Made by a program: the position numbers and the translations under genes | Source of the DNA: a virus | Length of the DNA stretch: 64,000 nt | Virus record (IMG/VR): IMGVR_UViG_3300024344_003321 | Location: 1-64,000 of that record | Reading direction: 5' to 3' (one strand) | In this document: piece after piece, positions 43,072 to 50,022 of the stretch | How the letters are laid out: the number at the start of each line of letters is the position of its first letter | How positions within the stretch are numbered: position 1 is the stretch's first letter | The notes under the pieces: model-generated | The model's input: the letters and a program-made list of their open reading frames with translations, nothing else | Databases searched by the model: none | What the model was told of the DNA's origin: nothing

Positions 43072-44263
43072 ATTTATTTATTTCCCATCATTTTCTGCAG
43101 GAGAATATGGTGATAAATTAAAAAAAGATTATAAGTTTAAAAATGGGCACTCGTGCCGATTTTATTCGGATGATTTTCCTGAACAATATAGACATAATCA
43201 AGTTTTAATAACAGCGGGAGCTCATTTTAAAACTGATGGTTATCGTAATTTGTTAGGACTATCTAAGGATAATTTAGTGATGGGTGACTCTGGTGGATAT
43301 CAAATAGCATCTGGTGCTATGAAGTGGGATATAAAACATAGAGATAGAATTTTTAAATGGTTAGAAGAAAATGCTGATGTTGCTATGAATTTAGATATTC
43401 CACCAAGATTGAAATATCAAGGTAAATATAGAGAATGTTTAGATATTAGCATTGATAATTTTAAATATTTTGATAAACATCAGGATGGTAGCACTAAATT
43501 TCTAAATGTAGTACAGGGTGATGATGATGTTACATACCAGAATTGGTATGACCAAGTAAAAGATTTTGAATTTTCTGGTTGGGGTGTAGGTGGTGCCGGT
43601 GGGAGTATGTATCGGTTCATGTCAGGTGTTTTAGCATTAATAAATGGTAAAGAACACCTAAAACCTAATAATGAATATTTTCATATTTTGGGAACATCGA
43701 AGATTAGAGATTTTTTAATGTTAATACAATTGCAGAAGTCACTTGAAGAGGTTGGGAGTAAAGTAACTGTTACTACGGATAGTTCGTCACCAGATAGAGC
43801 TGTAGTATTTGGGACATTCTATACTAATTTTAGTATTAAGCGGGGTACATTTGAGTCGGTTAATTTTCCCAATGCTAAGCATCAAGGGGATATAATTGAT
43901 GATTTTTTAACACTTGAAAATATGAATTGGCCAAACTTGACTAAATTTGATGATAATTTATCAAAATTTGTAGGTTGGAAAGACACAGCAGAATGGAATT
44001 CTGATTGTACAATTGGTATGAGATTACATAATTTTTTTGTATTCAAGGATGCAATACAGCAGATAACTGATTATGTATATGGTCACAATTATATTTTAGA
44101 ACAAGTTGTGGATAAAGAAGTATATACTGTTTTAATGTCAATTGATGAAATGGTCAAAAGTGATGACCCGAAGCGTGTATTTGAGAAATATAAACCATTG
44201 TATTCTAAATTTAGTAATATGAAAAAAACAATAATAAATAACAGTGCGGGGTTTTGGGAATGA
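43064..44263 (+). CDS. dpdA: TGT-fold deazaguanine transglycosylase (DpdA-like)
   Basis: MGDSGGYQ, NLDIPP, VVQG, GWGVGG, HILG, TDSSS, LHN appear in TGT motif order; same operon as folE/queD/queE. Confidence 0.75.
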   Translation: MRKFIYFPSFSAGEYGDKLKKDYKFKNGHSCRFYSDDFPEQYRHNQVLITAGAHFKTDGYRNLLGLSKDNLVMGDSGGYQIASGAMKWDIKHRDRIFKWLEENADVAMNLDIPPRLKYQGKYRECLDISIDNFKYFDKHQDGSTKFLNVVQGDDDVTYQNWYDQVKDFEFSGWGVGGAGGSMYRFMSGVLALINGKEHLKPNNEYFHILGTSKIRDFLMLIQLQKSLEEVGSKVTVTTDSSSPDRAVVFGTFYTNFSIKRGTFESVNFPNAKHQGDIIDDFLTLENMNWPNLTKFDDNLSKFVGWKDTAEWNSDCTIGMRLHNFFVFKDAIQQITDYVYGHNYILEQVVDKEVYTVLMSIDEMVKSDDPKRVFEKYKPLYSKFSNMKKTIINNSAGFWE

Positions 44264-44301
44264 TGGATCCAATGTCAATAATGGATCCAATAATGCATCC
44301 A
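44263..44301 (+). repeat. Three short imperfect direct repeats ATG(G/C)ATCCA
   Basis: ATGGATCCAAT at 44263 and 44281; ATGCATCCA at 44293. Confidence 0.6.
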
Positions 44302-44340
44302 GAGCGCCGAATTAATAATATAAAACAAGGAAATAATAGT

Positions 44341-45063
44341 ATGGATAAAAATAAAATAGATAGATTTATAACAAAATATTCTTTAGCTGGTAACGCTAAT
44401 TCAGTTAAATGGAAATTTACTGATAATAGGTTAGTAACATCATTTGTAACTGAGGATAGAAGTTTATTGGGTCAAGTAACAGTTGATAATTTTGACTTTG
44501 AGGAATGTGAATTGGGGGTTTATGCAACAGACCAATTGCAAAAATTATTAAGTGTACTTAGTGACAGCGTAAAACTATCTTTAAATAAATTTGGTGATAA
44601 GCCACTTTCATTAGGAATTAAAAATGATTTTGTCGCAGTGGACTTTGTGTTATCAGATTTATCGGTTATACCAGAACCACCTAAAATGAAAAAAATACCA
44701 GACTTTAAAACTAAAATTAAAATGGATACTGCTTTTATATCTGCATTTATTAAAGGTAAATCTGCATTACCAGATTCAACATCATTTACAGTAACAGGTA
44801 CCAATGATGGTGATTGTAAAATAGTTATAGGGTATTCCAATACAACTACAAATAGAGTTAGCTTAGATGTAGAATGTTCAAACTGTGATTTAGATGAAAA
44901 TGTATCATTTAATGCAGATTTATTTAAGGAAATTTTAAGTGCAAATAAAGAATGTACTGATGCTGTTCTTGAAGTTTCAAATGATGGTCTTGCTAAGATA
45001 AATTTTAAAATAGACGATTTTGATGCAGTTTATTATATGGTAGCTAACCAAGAGGATGAGTAA
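44341..45063 (+). CDS. Sliding clamp (gp45/PCNA-like)
   Basis: About 240 aa acidic alpha/beta protein (LGVY...QLQKLL, EVSNDGLAKINF) directly before the clamp loader; upstream in-frame ATGs at 44254-44293 are possible. Confidence 0.7.
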   Translation: MDKNKIDRFITKYSLAGNANSVKWKFTDNRLVTSFVTEDRSLLGQVTVDNFDFEECELGVYATDQLQKLLSVLSDSVKLSLNKFGDKPLSLGIKNDFVAVDFVLSDLSVIPEPPKMKKIPDFKTKIKMDTAFISAFIKGKSALPDSTSFTVTGTNDGDCKIVIGYSNTTTNRVSLDVECSNCDLDENVSFNADLFKEILSANKECTDAVLEVSNDGLAKINFKIDDFDAVYYMVANQEDE

Positions 45064-45974
45064 TGAGTGTAACGCATTCACTTTGGGTTGAAAAGTATAG
45101 GCCTAATAAATTAGATAATTATATAGGTAATGAACATTTAAAGACAAAAGTGCAGCGGTATATAGATGACCAAGATGTCCCTCACCTATTATTATATGGT
45201 AGAGCAGGTACAGGCAAAACTACTTTGGCTAAATTAGTCGTTAAGAATATTGAATGTGATTATCTTTATATAAATGCATCAGATGAAAATAATATAGATA
45301 CTGTACGGTTTAAAATAAGAGCATTTGCATCAACTGTTGGGTTTAAGGATTTAAAAGTTGTGATATTAGATGAGTGCGACTATTTAACGCCAAATGCACA
45401 GGCTGCATTAAGAAATGTAATGGAAACATTTTCAAAACATTGTAGGTTCATATTAACTTGTAATTATGTTGAACGGGTCATCGACCCAATACAATCAAGA
45501 TGCCAATCATATAAGATTGTACCACCTAAAAAATCAGATGTTGCTAGGCACATAGTAACTATATTAAACGCTGAAAAAGTCACCTATGATTTAGATGATG
45601 TAGCTACTTTGATAACTGCCGGGTACCCTGATATTAGACGAGTGTTAAACTCTATGCAAAGACAGGTAGTCGATGGAAAATTGAAGGTGGATGTTGATAC
45701 TATAATACAAAATGACTATAAAATGAAATTGTTAGAATTATTAACTACTAATGCTAGTTTAAATGATATACGACAATTAATTGCCAACAATTCTATTAGT
45801 GATTATTCTGAATTATATAGGTTATTATATGATGAGGTTGATAATTATTCTAAGGGGAATGTTGCAGAATGTATATTAGCAATAGCAGAAGGTCAATATC
45901 AAGACGTGAATGTGGTTGATAAGGAAATTAATTTTATGAGTACTATATTAAAAATACAGGAAAAAATAAGATGA
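45063..45974 (+). CDS. Clamp loader AAA+ subunit (gp44/RFC-like)
   Basis: WVEKYRP, GRAGTGKTT, INASDE, LDECD, QAALR, QSRC. Confidence 0.92.
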   Translation: MSVTHSLWVEKYRPNKLDNYIGNEHLKTKVQRYIDDQDVPHLLLYGRAGTGKTTLAKLVVKNIECDYLYINASDENNIDTVRFKIRAFASTVGFKDLKVVILDECDYLTPNAQAALRNVMETFSKHCRFILTCNYVERVIDPIQSRCQSYKIVPPKKSDVARHIVTILNAEKVTYDLDDVATLITAGYPDIRRVLNSMQRQVVDGKLKVDVDTIIQNDYKMKLLELLTTNASLNDIRQLIANNSISDYSELYRLLYDEVDNYSKGNVAECILAIAEGQYQDVNVVDKEINFMSTILKIQEKIR

Positions 45975-46156
45975 GAACTTTTGAAGTTGTAAATAATAAT
46001 GATTGTGCGGACAATACTTGGGGTGATACTGATTGTAGAAAAATTATAGTTACCTTACCCGAAGGACCATATACGGATGAGCGAATTTTAAATAAAACAG
46101 GTTATAATCCCGAAAATGTTACAATACGGGATATAACATTGGAGGAGATATTATGA
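45971..46156 (+). CDS. Hypothetical protein
   Basis: 61 aa with ATGA overlaps on both sides. Confidence 0.5.
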   Translation: MRTFEVVNNNDCADNTWGDTDCRKIIVTLPEGPYTDERILNKTGYNPENVTIRDITLEEIL

Positions 46157-46377: not shown

Positions 46378-46560
46378 ATGCCGATATACACTTTTAGATG
46401 TAAATGTGGAAATGAAAAAGACATTATATGCAAGAGCTGTGATACAGAATTACGGATGTGTACTAAATGTGGATGTGGTATGAAGCGGGTAGTGAGTAAG
46501 GGTGGTTCATTTAAATTAAAGGGCAGTGGATTTTACGAAACTGACTATAAGGATAAATGA
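46378..46560 (+). CDS. FmdB-family zinc ribbon protein
   Basis: MPIYTFRC.CG...CTKCG..MKRVVS....FKLKGSGFYETDY. Confidence 0.75.
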   Translation: MPIYTFRCKCGNEKDIICKSCDTELRMCTKCGCGMKRVVSKGGSFKLKGSGFYETDYKDK

Positions 46561-46988
46561 TGACAATATTTAATTGGATAGACCAGATATTGGTTAATAA
46601 AAAATCATGGGAAAAGTTTGATGAATCTGACCATAAAACTTTCAGTCCATTTATCATAAATAGATGGTTATCAATGGATGTGGATTTTCTTGAAATAGTT
46701 AATTTTTTTCAAAAATATTCTATTGGATTGTTAAAACCTAAAGAAGTATATAAATGGTATTGTGATGTATTGCCAAAAGGTAAGAGATTTAATAAATATA
46801 TCAAGGGGAAAAAACAAGTGAAATATAATAACGATTTGATAGAAATTACATGCAAACATTTTGAAACAAGTAAAAAAGAATGTATGGAGTATATTGAATT
46901 AATGAATAAAGAACAATTAACATCATTATTAGAATTGTTTGGTAAAAATCCAAAAGAAATTAAAACATTATTAAAGGGCAAAAAGTGA
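46557..46988 (+). CDS. Clamp loader small subunit (gp62-like)
   Basis: FSPFIINRWLSM, LPKGKRFNKYIK, HFETSKKE..EY. Confidence 0.65.
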   Translation: MMTIFNWIDQILVNKKSWEKFDESDHKTFSPFIINRWLSMDVDFLEIVNFFQKYSIGLLKPKEVYKWYCDVLPKGKRFNKYIKGKKQVKYNNDLIEITCKHFETSKKECMEYIELMNKEQLTSLLELFGKNPKEIKTLLKGKK

Positions 46989-47425
46989 AACCAAAAATAA
47001 AAGTTACAAATGAAAAAGGCGAAGATGTTACTATGGACCGACTAAATATCATAGGGCAAAATGGAAATAGTGGGTTACATTATGACAAGATAGAAGATGC
47101 TATTTCATTTATAACAAAAAAATATCCAGAAACCACAAAAATGTTTCAAGATACACAATTTGAGCAATGGGAGTTATTCTGTAAAAAACAAAAAGATTAT
47201 GGGCCAAAAAATATATCAGTTGGAACTAATTTAGAAACGGATGAAGAAGTTAAATTGGCTCTAACGGGATTGTGGTTTAGAATGAATGACAAAATGCAAA
47301 GATTTCAACAAATAGTTATGAATAATCAAGAACCTGAAAATGAATCTTTAATGGATACATTTACAGATTTAGCTAATTACGCAATAATAGCACAATTAGT
47401 ACAAGAAAAAATATGGGGGAAATAA
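46985..47425 (+). CDS. DUF1599 / nucleotide-modification-associated domain protein
   Basis: KKQKDYG..NI, RMNDKMQR, ESLMDTFTDLANYAII. Confidence 0.7.
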   Translation: MKPKIKVTNEKGEDVTMDRLNIIGQNGNSGLHYDKIEDAISFITKKYPETTKMFQDTQFEQWELFCKKQKDYGPKNISVGTNLETDEEVKLALTGLWFRMNDKMQRFQQIVMNNQEPENESLMDTFTDLANYAIIAQLVQEKIWGK

Positions 47426-47622
47426 TGGATGAAGAAACAAGGTATCACACAGGTGATGTCGTTACAATAAATAATATAGATTGGATTATTGAATCTGTTA
47501 CAATGAGATTTGGTAAGATAATGAATTACGCGTTAAAATACAAAGATGAAAATGGTGATAGGGAATTTGTTAATATTGAAACGGGTTCACTTGAAACATT
47601 AATTAAATTAGGAGAGAGTTAA
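47425..47622 (+). CDS. Hypothetical SH3-like small protein
   Basis: RYHTGDVVTIN...; ORF 47413..47622. Confidence 0.45.
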   Translation: MDEETRYHTGDVVTINNIDWIIESVTMRFGKIMNYALKYKDENGDREFVNIETGSLETLIKLGES

Positions 47623-48455
47623 TGAAAGATATGTTCGCATATGATGCGGTAGTATATAAAATGAGGCAGTATTTTAGAGAAGCAAAAGGATTTGTCGAAG
47701 TACCGGCACAATCCCGACAGTCAATATTAGCAGCGTGTGAGGACCCAAAAACAATCAGCCAGTATGTTTTTAGTGGAACGAATTGGCCACTACCACAAAC
47801 AGGACAAATGTGGTTGGAACACGAGCTGTTGAAAAACCCAACGATAAAGGGTGTATTTTGTGTAACTACATCATACAGAAATGAGCCAAATCCAATACCA
47901 GGGAGACACGATAAAATATTTCCAATGTTTGAATTTGAATCACATGGTAATATGGATGATTTGATAACCATTGAAGAAGAATTATTATCATTTTTAGGGT
48001 TTGGTAGTGTGTTAGATTTCAGCACTGTAAAATATGAAGATGCTTCTACAAAATATGGTGTATCTGAATTAGATGTTGATGAAGAAGAAAAACTATGTAA
48101 GGATTTCAGTACTTGTACATTCTTAACAGACTTTCCTCAAAGAACACATCCATTTTGGAATATGAAACAAAATGAAGTGGATAAAAATCTATTTAATAAA
48201 GTAGATGTCATAATGCATGGAATGGAAACAATAGGAAGTGCTGAACGGAGTACAAATGTTGAAGAAATGCGACATCAATTTCATACAATTTCAGATGGTG
48301 AATATGCGGGATTGTTATTTAATCATTTTGGAAAAGAACGAGTTGAAGCTGAATTAGAGGAATATTTATCCCATGATATGTTTCCAAGATTTGGAGCAGG
48401 AATTGGCGTTACTCGTATGGTACGGGCAATGGAATTATCAGGATTATTAAATTAA
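47622..48455 (+). CDS. Class IIb aminoacyl-tRNA synthetase-like catalytic domain (Asp/AsnRS paralog lacking the anticodon-binding domain)
   Basis: Motif 1 MRQYFREAKGFVEVP, PQTGQMWLE, motif 2 YRNEPNPIPGRH..IFPMFEFE, ETIGSAER, motif 3 GAGIGVTRM; 277 aa starting at motif 1. Confidence 0.85.
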   Translation: MKDMFAYDAVVYKMRQYFREAKGFVEVPAQSRQSILAACEDPKTISQYVFSGTNWPLPQTGQMWLEHELLKNPTIKGVFCVTTSYRNEPNPIPGRHDKIFPMFEFESHGNMDDLITIEEELLSFLGFGSVLDFSTVKYEDASTKYGVSELDVDEEEKLCKDFSTCTFLTDFPQRTHPFWNMKQNEVDKNLFNKVDVIMHGMETIGSAERSTNVEEMRHQFHTISDGEYAGLLFNHFGKERVEAELEEYLSHDMFPRFGAGIGVTRMVRAMELSGLLN

Positions 48456-48474
48456 ACAATAGGAGAATAAGGTT

Positions 48475-48684
48475 ATGGCACATTATTACGAAGCAAATGT
48501 AGTATTTGAGGAAACGGTTGATACAAAAAATGGACCGAAAACTAAAAAGACAAAAGAAAACTATTTGGTAGAAGGTGATTCAGTTACTTATGTTGAAGCA
48601 AAAGTAAATGAACATCTACAAGATAGTGTTCACCCATTTGAAGTAAAATCAGTTAGAGAATCTAAAATAGTAGAAGTTGTTTGA
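48475..48684 (+). CDS. DUF4494-like small protein
   Basis: YYEANV, KKTKENYLVEGDSVTYVEAKV, FEVKSVRESKIVEV. Confidence 0.55.
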   Translation: MAHYYEANVVFEETVDTKNGPKTKKTKENYLVEGDSVTYVEAKVNEHLQDSVHPFEVKSVRESKIVEVV

Positions 48685-49049
48685 AATTCCTAACACGAAA
48701 ACTCGTTACACCAGCAGACTTAAACCCTCGTGGAACTTTACATGGGGGTATTCTGCTGAAATGGATTGACGAAGAAGCAGGTGTACACGCAGCATTAGAA
48801 CTCAATACAGGTTTATTAGTCACTAAATATATGTCAGAGATAGAATTTGTATCTCCAGTGTTACCAGGCGATATAGTTGAAATTGGAATGGAAACTTTAA
48901 AGGTTGGGACAACATCAATTACATTAAAATGCGATGTTAGGTCTAAACAAATGGATGCTGTTATATTACGAATTGAAAAGATTATATTTGTCAGAGTGAA
49001 TAAATATGGTCAACCAAAAGCACACGGTGCGAGTTGGGATGAAGATTAA
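48681..49049 (+). CDS. Hotdog-fold acyl-CoA thioesterase
   Basis: DLNPRGTLHGGILLKWIDEEA, VGTTSI, FVRVN..GQP. Confidence 0.85.
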   Translation: MKFLTRKLVTPADLNPRGTLHGGILLKWIDEEAGVHAALELNTGLLVTKYMSEIEFVSPVLPGDIVEIGMETLKVGTTSITLKCDVRSKQMDAVILRIEKIIFVRVNKYGQPKAHGASWDED

Positions 49050-49051
49050 AT

Positions 49052-49135
49052 TGGAGTATGGTGGAATTGGCAGACACGCTATCCTGTTTAGATGGTGATA
49101 TTTATATCGTGGGGGTTCGATTCCTTCTGCTCCAG
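49052..49135 (+). tRNA. Atypical tRNA, anticodon GUU (Asn), with a type II long variable arm
   Basis: Acceptor TGGAGTA/TGCTCCA plus G73; D-arm GTG-GAATTGGCAGA-CAC; anticodon stem CTATC/GATGG with loop CTGTTTA; 15-nt variable arm TGATATTTATATCGT; T-arm GGGGG-TTCGATT-CCTTC; CCA not encoded. Confidence 0.8.
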
Positions 49136-49161
49136 CAAAAATAAAAAAAAGAGGTTATAGT

Positions 49162-50022
49162 ATGAGTAGAATATCATATTCACAATTATCATTATATACT
49201 AATTGCCCTAAGCAATGGCAATTAAGGTATATAGACAAAATAACAGAATCCGAATCAAATATATATTTAGTATTCGGTACTGCAATGCATGAAACATTAC
49301 AACATTATCTTGATGTGATGTACAAACATACAGTCAAAAAGGCCGATGAAATAAACTTACCAAAATTCTTACAAAAGGCTTTAATAACAGAATTTAAAAA
49401 AGCTGAAGAAGCTGATGGCAAACTACCTTGCACGAAGGAAGAACTATATGAGTTTTTTCAAGATGGTTGTGATATACTTGATTTTTTCAAAAAACGGCGA
49501 AGTGAGTATTTTAGTAAAAACGGGTGGGAGTTAGTTGGTATAGAAAAACCAATAAATGTCGAGCTAAAAGGGAAATTGAGAATAGTTGGTTTTCTTGATG
49601 TGGTGATGTATGATAAAATAGCTAATAGAATAAAGATAATTGATATTAAAACATCTACAATGGGTTGGAACAAGTGGCAGAAAAAAGATGAGAACAAAAC
49701 AGCACAATTATTATTATATAAACAATTTTATGCCAAACAATACGGATTTCCGATAGAAAATATAGATGTTGAATATTTTATAGTAAAACGGAAATTATAT
49801 GAAAATGCACAATTTCCGCAAAAAAGAGTTCAAAAGTTTTCACCTGCAAGTGGGACGGTATCAATGAATAAAGTTGCTAAAAAAATGAAAATTTTTATGG
49901 ATGATGCATTTGATGATGATGGTCAGCATATAATAAAAGAATATCAAACTAACCCATCTAAAAAGGCGTGTAGGTGGTGTGAATTTAATAAAACAGAACA
50001 TTGTTCGGATGGTGTAAAATGA
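49162..50022 (+). CDS. PD-(D/E)XK RecB/Cas4-like exonuclease
   Basis: ISYSQL...CP, FGTAMHE, GFLDVV...IIDIKT, QLLLY, CRWCEF....C. Confidence 0.85.
   Translation: MSRISYSQLSLYTNCPKQWQLRYIDKITESESNIYLVFGTAMHETLQHYLDVMYKHTVKKADEINLPKFLQKALITEFKKAEEADGKLPCTKEELYEFFQDGCDILDFFKKRRSEYFSKNGWELVGIEKPINVELKGKLRIVGFLDVVMYDKIANRIKIIDIKTSTMGWNKWQKKDENKTAQLLLYKQFYAKQYGFPIENIDVEYFIVKRKLYENAQFPQKRVQKFSPASGTVSMNKVAKKMKIFMDDAFDDDGQHIIKEYQTNPSKKACRWCEFNKTEHCSDGVK

Follow-up and report, generated by a model that had tools for sequence, protein, structure and literature searches.

A stretch of 64,000 nucleotides (nt) of viral DNA, positions 1 to 64,000 of IMG/VR record IMGVR_UViG_3300024344_003321 and called the window here, raises the question of what ties the gene for an enzyme resembling asparaginyl-tRNA synthetase (AsnRS) to a transfer RNA (tRNA) of unusual shape that stands downstream of it. 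The enzyme has 277 amino acids (aa) and no domain for reading an anticodon, and the tRNA combines the anticodon GUU with a long variable arm. We favour, at a rough probability of 45%, the reading that the enzyme is a minimal AsnRS that would charge tRNA-Asn at its acceptor end and that the long-arm tRNA is its dedicated substrate. This reading is suggested by a one-way dependence of the tRNA on the enzyme, a canonical tRNA-Asn found in the same slot, an AsnRS-type pocket, invariant positions at the acceptor end of the tRNA, and cyanophage hosts without AsnRS.

Linkage between the enzyme gene and the long-arm tRNA

Both genes lie on the plus strand of the window, the enzyme gene at 47622-48455 and the tRNA at 49052-49135, and a gap of 596 nt separates the enzyme's stop codon from the first nucleotide of the tRNA. 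Two other genes occupy this gap, and the stop codon of the second, a thioesterase gene, is 2 nt from the tRNA. In the Prochlorococcus phages P-SSM2, P-SSM5 and P-SSM7, a tRNA(GUU) of 85-88 nt is found 0-10 nt behind the enzyme gene. An enzyme-anchored set of 83 loci (L001-L083) with flanks of 4-5 kb was assembled, which together with the window gives 84 sources. A long-arm tRNA was found downstream on the same strand in 17 of the 83 loci, counting L005, whose anticodon is GUC. The 84 sources hold 27 tRNAs within 4 kb of the enzyme gene; 20 of these have the anticodon GUU or GUC, and all 20 are downstream and on the same strand. Two loci (L019:1320-1392 and L023:4810-4882) carry a canonical tRNA-Asn of 73 nt (GUU, A37, U1-A72, G73), beginning right at the enzyme's stop codon, where other loci have the long-arm tRNA. 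A tRNA-Gly(GCC) lies 12 nt behind the enzyme gene at L039:4870-4945, the only exception of its kind.

A preliminary description of the window, made from sequence alone, had proposed comparing synteny between this protein family and long-arm tRNAs across phage genomes. Such a comparison was carried out in the reverse direction by scanning IMG/VR, independently of the enzyme, for a signature composed of the D arm and CTGTTTA. The scan returned 127 matches, of which 112 are true tRNAs with sufficient upstream sequence. The enzyme gene stands directly upstream, on the same strand, in all 112, and the long-arm tRNA was therefore never seen without the enzyme. The remaining matches are either cut by contig or locus ends (8) or have no tRNA fold and are chance matches (7). 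The distance from the stop codon to position 1 of the tRNA has a median of 8 nt.

In a tree of 152 distinct enzymes, the tRNA-linked genes fall into three groups. The first is a cyanophage-like clade in which every gene is linked (84/84), and the second is a clade with A1-U72 tRNAs, again linked throughout (13/13). The third comprises the window, L005 and L004/L169, and is basal to a clade that is otherwise without the tRNA, having lost it. The cassette of enzyme and tRNA thus persists in three enzyme clades while the other neighbours change. Together with the linkage in all testable cases, this argues against an unrelated tRNA, as assumed in the simpler alternative of the preliminary description.

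The long-arm tRNA

ARAGORN reports a single tRNA in the 64-kb window, Asn(GUU) at 49052-49136, and Rfam places a tRNA at 49052-49135 with 36.7 bits. The same element scores 89 bits with R1, a covariance model of the long-arm tRNAs, and is the sole match to the tRNA model in the full 97-kb record. It is an 84-nt tRNA of type II, that is, with a long variable arm. The anticodon GUU (tRNA positions 34-36) is at 49086-49088, inside the 7-nt loop CUGUUUA at 49084-49090, so that position 37 is U. The variable region at 49096-49110 measures 15 nt and, according to direct reading and covariation, has a 4-bp stem (GAUA/UAUC) and a 4-nt loop. Direct reading also gives U1-A72 and G73, and CCA is not encoded. 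The account in the preliminary description, of one tRNA in the window with GUU, U1-A72, G73 and a paired 15-nt arm, is therefore correct.

The identity features of this tRNA point in two directions. U1-A72, G73 and GUU are features of bacterial tRNA-Asn, and the window tRNA has all three; the short variable loop of 4-5 nt, the small D loop and A37 of bacterial tRNA-Asn are missing from it. Its D arm has a 3-bp stem and a 9-nt D loop of the GGAAUUGGCAG type, as in tRNA-Leu. The variable arm exceeds 10 nt and forms a helix, as in type II tRNAs, and the anticodon is none of those of Leu, Ser, Tyr or Sec.

The alignment of 12 homologous tRNAs has all 24 of 24 pairs 100% paired, with compensatory changes in 18, including all 4 pairs of the variable arm. 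None of 500 shuffles matched this pairing support, so the tRNA fold is not a product of chance. In the larger set of 77 distinct homologues, G73 is invariant (75/75), and pair 1-72 is U-A in 66, A-U in 9 and never G-C. The loop CUGUUUA is found in 76 of 77, and the anticodon is GUU in 76 of 77 and GUC in one. U8, G9, the G18G19 dinucleotide and the T loop are likewise conserved among the 77. The variable region ranges from 13 to 44 nt (76 distinct homologues), and CCA is encoded in 43 of 118 copies. The family model gives phage tRNA-Leu 59-69 bits versus 47-50 bits for canonical tRNA-Asn, a preference that marks the body as Leu-like. By these comparisons, the tRNA is a Leu-like body that bears the identity positions of tRNA-Asn.

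Several variants of the tRNA were observed. The nearest relative of the window cassette, L005:5332-5479, has the same tRNA body with the loop UUGUCUC (GUC, Asp; U37) and a variable region of 79 nt; it may be either a decaying copy or a genuine variant with an Asp anticodon. A cyanophage-like subgroup (L111, L128, L181 and L203 among others) has tRNAs of 96-113 nt, in which the variable region reaches up to 44 nt. These longer versions are overlooked by ARAGORN or called Asp(atc), Arg(acg) or Asn(att), and they are recovered by the covariance model.

Fold and active site of the enzyme

The enzyme gene encodes a class IIb aminoacyl-tRNA-synthetase core, AsnRS-like, that belongs to PHROG 29758 (E 3e-96), a family annotated as function unknown. 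Residues 9-270 match positions 27-292 of the 308 in Pfam tRNA-synt_2 (class II D/K/N) with an E-value of 5e-19, and no second domain was found in the Pfam search. NCBIfam gave sub-threshold matches to LysRS and AspRS only. The motifs SILAACEDP, PLPQTGQMWLE, SYRNEPNPIPGRH..FPMFEFE, ETIGSAERS and GAGIGVTR are present. The N-terminal OB-fold anticodon-binding domain and the hinge are absent, and the protein begins at the motif-1 helix. All 83 copies taken from the loci are only about 245-310 aa long, which leaves no space for an N-terminal OB fold in any of them. Pfam, the structural model and these lengths bear out the preliminary description, which had reported a class II enzyme of 277 aa that starts at motif 1 and lacks the OB fold.

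To understand the structural relations of the enzyme, a confident AlphaFold2 (AF2) model was used, with a predicted local distance difference test score (pLDDT) of 95.7. Residues 2-274 of the model superpose on the catalytic domain of AsnRS, from the motif-1 helix onward. The top fold matches are human and Brugia AsnRS with Z 28.7-28.8 (8h53: Z 28.8, root-mean-square deviation 2.1, 249 residues, 24% identity), followed by archaeal AspRS with Z 27.8. LysRS gives Z of about 24-25, GenX 24.4, and the archaeal asparagine synthetase AS-AR (3rex, 3p8t, 1nnh) 24.0-24.4 over about 242 residues. The family profile matches AsnRS with an E-value of 2.6e-15, AspRS with 8.8e-13 and AS-AR with 1.1e-7; LysRS profiles match with 1e-5 to 6e-4.

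Family members were aligned residue by residue with AspRS, AsnRS, AsnA and EpmA of E. coli and with cyanobacterial AsnRS and AspRS. Kept in the family are the flipping-loop Glu, the motif-2 Arg (SYR), the motif-3 Arg (GVTR) and the Arg equivalent to Arg489 of AspRS; the Arg of the family's SAER aligns with that of SQR in AsnRS. The family's GQMWLE corresponds to GQLxxE of AsnRS, where AspRS has QLFKQ (Lys198). Its M-F-E corresponds to M-L-E of AsnRS, where AspRS has Q231-I-D233 and AsnA has Q116-W-D118. Relative to E. coli AsnA, Met, Glu and Leu take the place of the AsnA active-site residues Gln116, Asp118 and the Lys equivalent to AspRS Lys198. No match to AsnA models was obtained in the Pfam or NCBIfam (asnA) searches of the enzyme. 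Where EpmA has ELANGFHE the family has ETIGSAER, without the LysRS-type pocket and with the Arg of the AsnRS/AspRS type. The GQMWLE and M-F-E patterns mark the pocket as one of the AsnRS type, neither of the AspRS nor of the AsnA type; the comparison with AS-AR covered profile and fold. The active-site motifs are practically invariant across all clades, and since this holds with or without a linked tRNA, one activity is very probably common to all family members.

Distribution of the enzyme family

The enzyme has very many homologues: more than 8000 clusters of them at 90% identity were scored, and at 50% identity there are 176 clusters at E <= 1e-30 and 673 at E <= 1e-3. At least 596 IMG/VR contigs encode the enzyme. 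It occurs in tailed phages and in giant viruses, and capsid genes of nucleocytoplasmic large DNA viruses adjoin it in L074 and L079. Isolates with the enzyme are the phages P-SSM2, P-SSM5 and P-SSM7, where it is annotated as 'tRNA ligase', and the huge phages LR756501 and LR756508. All family members seen were viral, cellular genomes not having been searched for it. The one mention of the gene that the literature search turned up is in a table of a cyanomyovirus comparison, as 'tRNA ligase' (PMC3037559), and no published study of the enzyme-tRNA pair was found. Full-length AsnRS has been described as recurrent in giant viruses (bioRxiv 10.1101/2020.07.30.228163). Two single-member clusters hold the enzyme fused to a domain of pyrimidine synthesis, an N-terminal dihydroorotate dehydrogenase in P0122 (661 aa) and a C-terminal OMP decarboxylase in P0143 (588 aa); these may be true fusions or gene-calling artefacts.

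Hosts of the cyanophage clade

Host genomes were reached via psbA, carried on a cyanophage contig of the family. The host set consists of three complete Prochlorococcus genomes and marine Synechococcus RCC307 (the genomes behind L223, L235, L242 and L256). The class IIb synthetases of these four genomes are AspRS and LysRS only. No asnS match above the cut-off was obtained in any of the four (the Synechocystis control scored 696 bits), nor was AsnA found in them. GatB was found in all four, and an AsnB-type gene was above the cut-off in three. With GatB and without AsnRS, these hosts can make Asn-tRNA only by the indirect route, and free asparagine therefore has no way into translation in them without an added AsnRS activity. 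AsnRS is used in every known genome that has AsnA (Sheppard et al., 2008, PMC2330236).

The tRNA-Asn of Prochlorococcus MIT 1012 is canonical, with U1-A72, G73, A37, a 7-nt D loop and a short variable loop. According to a review of identity elements, AsnRS reads the anticodon and G73, GatCAB needs U1-A72 and is blocked by an extra base in the D loop, and in yeast t6A37 works against aspartylation (PMC9976931). From its sequence, the phage tRNA retains the acceptor-end signals, and its enlarged D loop, long arm and U37 should plausibly disturb the indirect pathway of the host.

Proposed mechanism and evidence against it

In the favoured reading, the 277-aa protein would be the AsnRS-derived catalytic core only, acting as a minimal asparaginyl-tRNA synthetase. 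It would form Asn-AMP in the AsnRS-type pocket and then move the asparagine to the 3' end of tRNA-Asn, recognised at the acceptor end by G73 and the weak 1-72 pair, with the anticodon not being read. In several T4-like marine phage lineages, the gene would be followed at once by the enzyme's own substrate, a Leu-type long-arm body remodelled into a tRNA-Asn(GUU), presumably co-transcribed with the enzyme and excised from the 3' end of the message. The window would represent a variant with two passenger genes inserted between enzyme and tRNA. The pair would provide a direct one-enzyme route to Asn-tRNA(Asn), independent of the host ND-AspRS and GatCAB in hosts without AsnRS, Prochlorococcus among them, and the enlarged D loop, the long arm and U37 may well exclude the phage tRNA from the host pathway. 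Asparagine activation, tRNA charging, the mode of recognition and the use of the tRNA by the ribosome are what we infer from these patterns.

A number of observations weigh against this reading. The enzyme gene is frequent without the tRNA: 59 of 179 near-full-length genes have no such tRNA within 1.5 kb downstream, and the long-arm tRNA(GUU) is absent from three complete phage genomes and two huge phages that bear the enzyme. The type II matches to the tRNA model in those phage genomes are tRNA-Leu or tRNA-Tyr. The enzyme also occurs without a special tRNA in giant-virus contigs, with indistinguishable active-site motifs. Being so often found alone, the enzyme does not depend on the tRNA. Moreover, about 4 state changes on the enzyme tree explain the tRNA association, so that the association is old and stably kept but reflects few independent events.

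Further points come from biochemistry. We know of no characterised class IIb paralogue without an anticodon domain (AsnA, AS-AR, EpmA/GenX) that charges tRNA, and AS-AR itself was initially annotated as a truncated AsnRS. U37 is very unusual in a tRNA for codons starting with A. Among the identity elements for AsnRS, the anticodon is a major one (PMC9976931). As the phage enzyme lacks the domain for reading it, a problem of fidelity arises with tRNA-Asp, also a G73 tRNA. The surroundings of the gene suggest a metabolic context as well. In 7 related loci (L005, L008, L009, L013, L025, L029 and L043; not in the window), the gene immediately upstream of the enzyme is glutamine-synthetase-like, and genes for dihydrofolate reductase (DHFR), ribonucleotide reductase and purine metabolism are frequent near it.

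The preliminary description had suggested a dedicated enzyme-tRNA pair. The part of this claim that concerns the tRNA is supported by its strict linkage to the enzyme, and the AsnRS-type residues and the AsnRS-less cyanophage hosts fit charging; exclusive dedication of the enzyme does not stand, given how frequently it lacks the tRNA. A bolder version makes the two a naturally orthogonal, anticodon-blind pair, in which a mini-AsnRS of about 275 aa would serve a private type II tRNA-Asn unusable by the host ND-AspRS and GatCAB. The enzyme would then recognise the acceptor end alone, perhaps the long arm too, and the phages would have a separate channel for decoding asparagine in hosts without AsnRS. 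We hold this version to be doubtful. Recoding of AAY codons to another amino acid was also considered and rejected informally, as family-invariant Asn residues (e.g., in FWNMK) use ordinary Asn codons of the standard code.

Alternative explanations

In the main rival reading, the enzyme would make free asparagine as AS-AR and AsnA do (Asp + NH4+ + ATP -> Asn + AMP + PPi), for use in Asn-rich viral proteins, and the tRNA(GUU) would be a host-charged decoding supplement within an 'asparagine supply' module. AS-AR is the precedent: Roy and co-workers in 2003 and Blaise and co-workers in 2011 are said to have described it as an AsnRS-like core of about 294 aa that synthesises asparagine without charging tRNA. 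The model of the phage enzyme superposes on AS-AR (Z 24.4, 242 residues). The wide occurrence of the enzyme without its own tRNA, including in giant viruses of eukaryotes, also speaks for a synthetase of this kind, as do the identical active-site motifs in linked and unlinked clades; the glutamine-synthetase-like gene upstream in 7 loci would fit a theme of ammonia assimilation or amide metabolism. A domain-less AsnA-like protein of Heterosigma akashiwo virus was judged an unlikely synthetase (PMC5127864), a verdict that favours the same explanation. Nevertheless, we consider it unlikely. Neither the Pfam AsnA nor the NCBIfam asnA model matches, Gln116, Asp118 and the Lys198-equivalent Lys are replaced by the AsnRS pattern, and AsnRS and AspRS are nearer than AS-AR by profile and fold alike. 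In the hosts of the 84-member cyanophage clade, which have no AsnRS, free asparagine would be barred from translation. A free synthetase would also leave unexplained both the dependence of the tRNA on the enzyme in 112 of 112 cases and the tRNA features expected to hinder the host pathway.

A second alternative is that the tRNA is used for chemistry other than asparaginylation of its 3' end for translation. It might undergo modification of the anticodon loop (G34 or queuosine-34), conversion of an attached amino acid, or use as an aminoacyl-tRNA donor in non-ribosomal transfer. The anticodon loop is invariant over its full length (76/77), even at the abnormal U37, beyond what decoding needs. 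U33-G34-U35, the motif read by tRNA-guanine transglycosylase, is kept even in the variant loop UUGUCUC of L005, and a variable region of 13-44 nt is unusual for a translating tRNA. A precedent is GluQRS (YadB), a truncated GluRS paralogue that lacks the anticodon domain and whose target is position 34 in a GUN tRNA (tRNA-Asp). However, none of the three chemistries is favoured by any result. CCA is encoded in 43 of 118 copies, and the T arm and elbow are normal, as in ordinary tRNAs; a canonical tRNA-Asn fills the same slot in L019 and L023; and in many viruses the enzyme works without the long-arm tRNA. As for conversion, adenylating the side-chain carboxylate of an Asp esterified to A76 would probably misfit the geometry of a class II active site. 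Taken together, chemistry of this kind is improbable.

That the element has no function in trans, being a cis-acting 3' element of the enzyme mRNA (a signal for RNase P/Z processing or stability) or a hitch-hiking relic, would agree with its start at a median of 8 nt past the stop codon, with the roughly 4 changes that suffice on the enzyme tree, with the decayed look of the L005 element (UUGUCUC, 79-nt variable region) and with the loss of the tRNA in the sister clade, but is highly improbable, because compensatory changes maintain the four canonical stems and the variable-arm stem, conservation across the 77 distinct sequences is strict for the anticodon loop, G18G19, the T loop and G73, the tRNA is retained in the window and in L004 despite 0.6-1 kb of intervening genes, and a processing signal has no need to conserve a GUU anticodon.

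Comparison with known systems

AsnRS of the archaeal/eukaryotic type is the best structural and profile match of the phage enzyme, with motifs 1-3, the catalytic arginines, the flipping-loop Glu and the specificity positions in common. The phage enzyme differs from it in missing the OB-fold anticodon domain and the hinge, and identity to cellular AsnRS is about 22-24%. AS-AR ('AsnRS2'; PDB 3P8T, 1NNH) has the architecture of the phage enzyme, about 290 aa of class IIb core and no anticodon domain, but it ranks below AsnRS and AspRS in profile and fold and, unlike the phage enzyme, has no link to a tRNA gene. AS-AR is found in organisms that possess AsnRS, whereas the cyanophage hosts examined have none. 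Bacterial AsnA has the class II core fold in common with the phage enzyme, as well as the arginines of motifs 2 and 3 and the Arg489 equivalent; it differs at Gln116 and Asp118 (Met and Glu in the phage enzyme) and has extra insertions of its own.

Two further systems lack an anticodon domain. EpmA/GenX/PoxA, the lysyltransferase of elongation factor P (EF-P), is a class IIb core of this kind (Z 24.4) and passes its activated amino acid on to an acceptor shaped like a tRNA. It is derived from LysRS, has a different pocket and acts on EF-P, whereas the phage enzyme has no link to EF-P and is linked to a real tRNA. GluQRS is comparable by analogy only, both being synthetase paralogues without an anticodon domain; it has the class I fold, glutamylates queuosine-34 rather than the 3' end, and is not homologous to the phage enzyme. 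Among tRNAs, those of type II (Leu, Ser, Tyr, Sec) share the long paired variable arm and the Leu-like D arm with the phage tRNA, which differs from them by GUU, G73, U1-A72, U37 and variable regions of up to 44 nt. Recognition independent of the anticodon is the rule for SerRS and LeuRS.

If the bolder, orthogonal version is true, no smaller class II synthetase able to charge a full tRNA would be known, and its partner would be the first long-arm tRNA-Asn. Under the favoured reading, a class IIb core that kept or regained charging, together with a co-evolved tRNA whose body type is not known from asparagine, would change the view of what class II enzymes minimally need for tRNA recognition. 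The phages would bypass the indirect Asn-tRNA pathway, costly in glutamine and requiring GatCAB, of Prochlorococcus and other abundant bacteria of the sea. Being compact and independent of the anticodon, the pair would be a candidate for use as an orthogonal pair in genetic-code engineering. Marine viruses carry the family widely and in large numbers, and it is annotated only as 'tRNA ligase' or unknown. Should asparagine synthesis prove to be the enzyme's function, it would still need explaining why the odd tRNA depends on it so strictly.

Neighbouring genes and genomic context

The two genes between enzyme and tRNA are on the plus strand. A DUF4494-like open reading frame (ORF) of 69 aa is located at 48475-48684 (Pfam PF14902, E 1.9e-9), and a hotdog-fold, YciA-like thioesterase of 122 aa at 48681-49049 (4HBT, E 2.4e-14; NCBIfam YciA, E 8.3e-11, below the curated cut-off). 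The gene order given in the preliminary description, with the tRNA about 600 nt downstream of the enzyme gene, is confirmed by Pfam and by the measured gap. Clustering of neighbours revealed no protein-coding neighbour conserved across the 84 loci; the DUF4494-like cluster is common to one other locus only (L008), and so is the thioesterase cluster (L025). Both genes were rejected as partners on this ground and are local passengers, inserted between enzyme and tRNA in this lineage.

The search for promoters and terminators in 46500-49400 gave no excess over shuffled sequence, and the sole 'terminator' is the anticodon arm of the tRNA. Upstream of the cassette, at 46985-47425, a DUF1599 protein ('nucleotide modification associated domain 1') is encoded. 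Downstream, at 49162-50022, lies a PD-(D/E)XK nuclease whose cluster is shared with L005 and L008. A T4-like replication module occupies 44254-46156, with a clamp-like ORF, an RFC/gp44-like clamp loader (45063-45974) and small downstream ORFs. No near-identical phage records were found for the window. The best isolate matches of the sliding clamp and clamp loader (44254-45974) are 39-47% identical and come from Microcystis, Synechococcus, Stenotrophomonas and Methylophilales phages; by these genes, the window belongs to a distant T4-like myovirus.

In other loci, the 333-aa glutamine-synthetase-like gene of L009 (2996-3997), directly upstream of the enzyme gene, contains both Gln-synt_N and Gln-synt_C and puts a second gene of the 'amide amino acid' kind beside the AsnRS-like one. 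DHFR is encoded beside or near the enzyme in six loci of different clades (L045, L054, L065, L066, L074 and L079).

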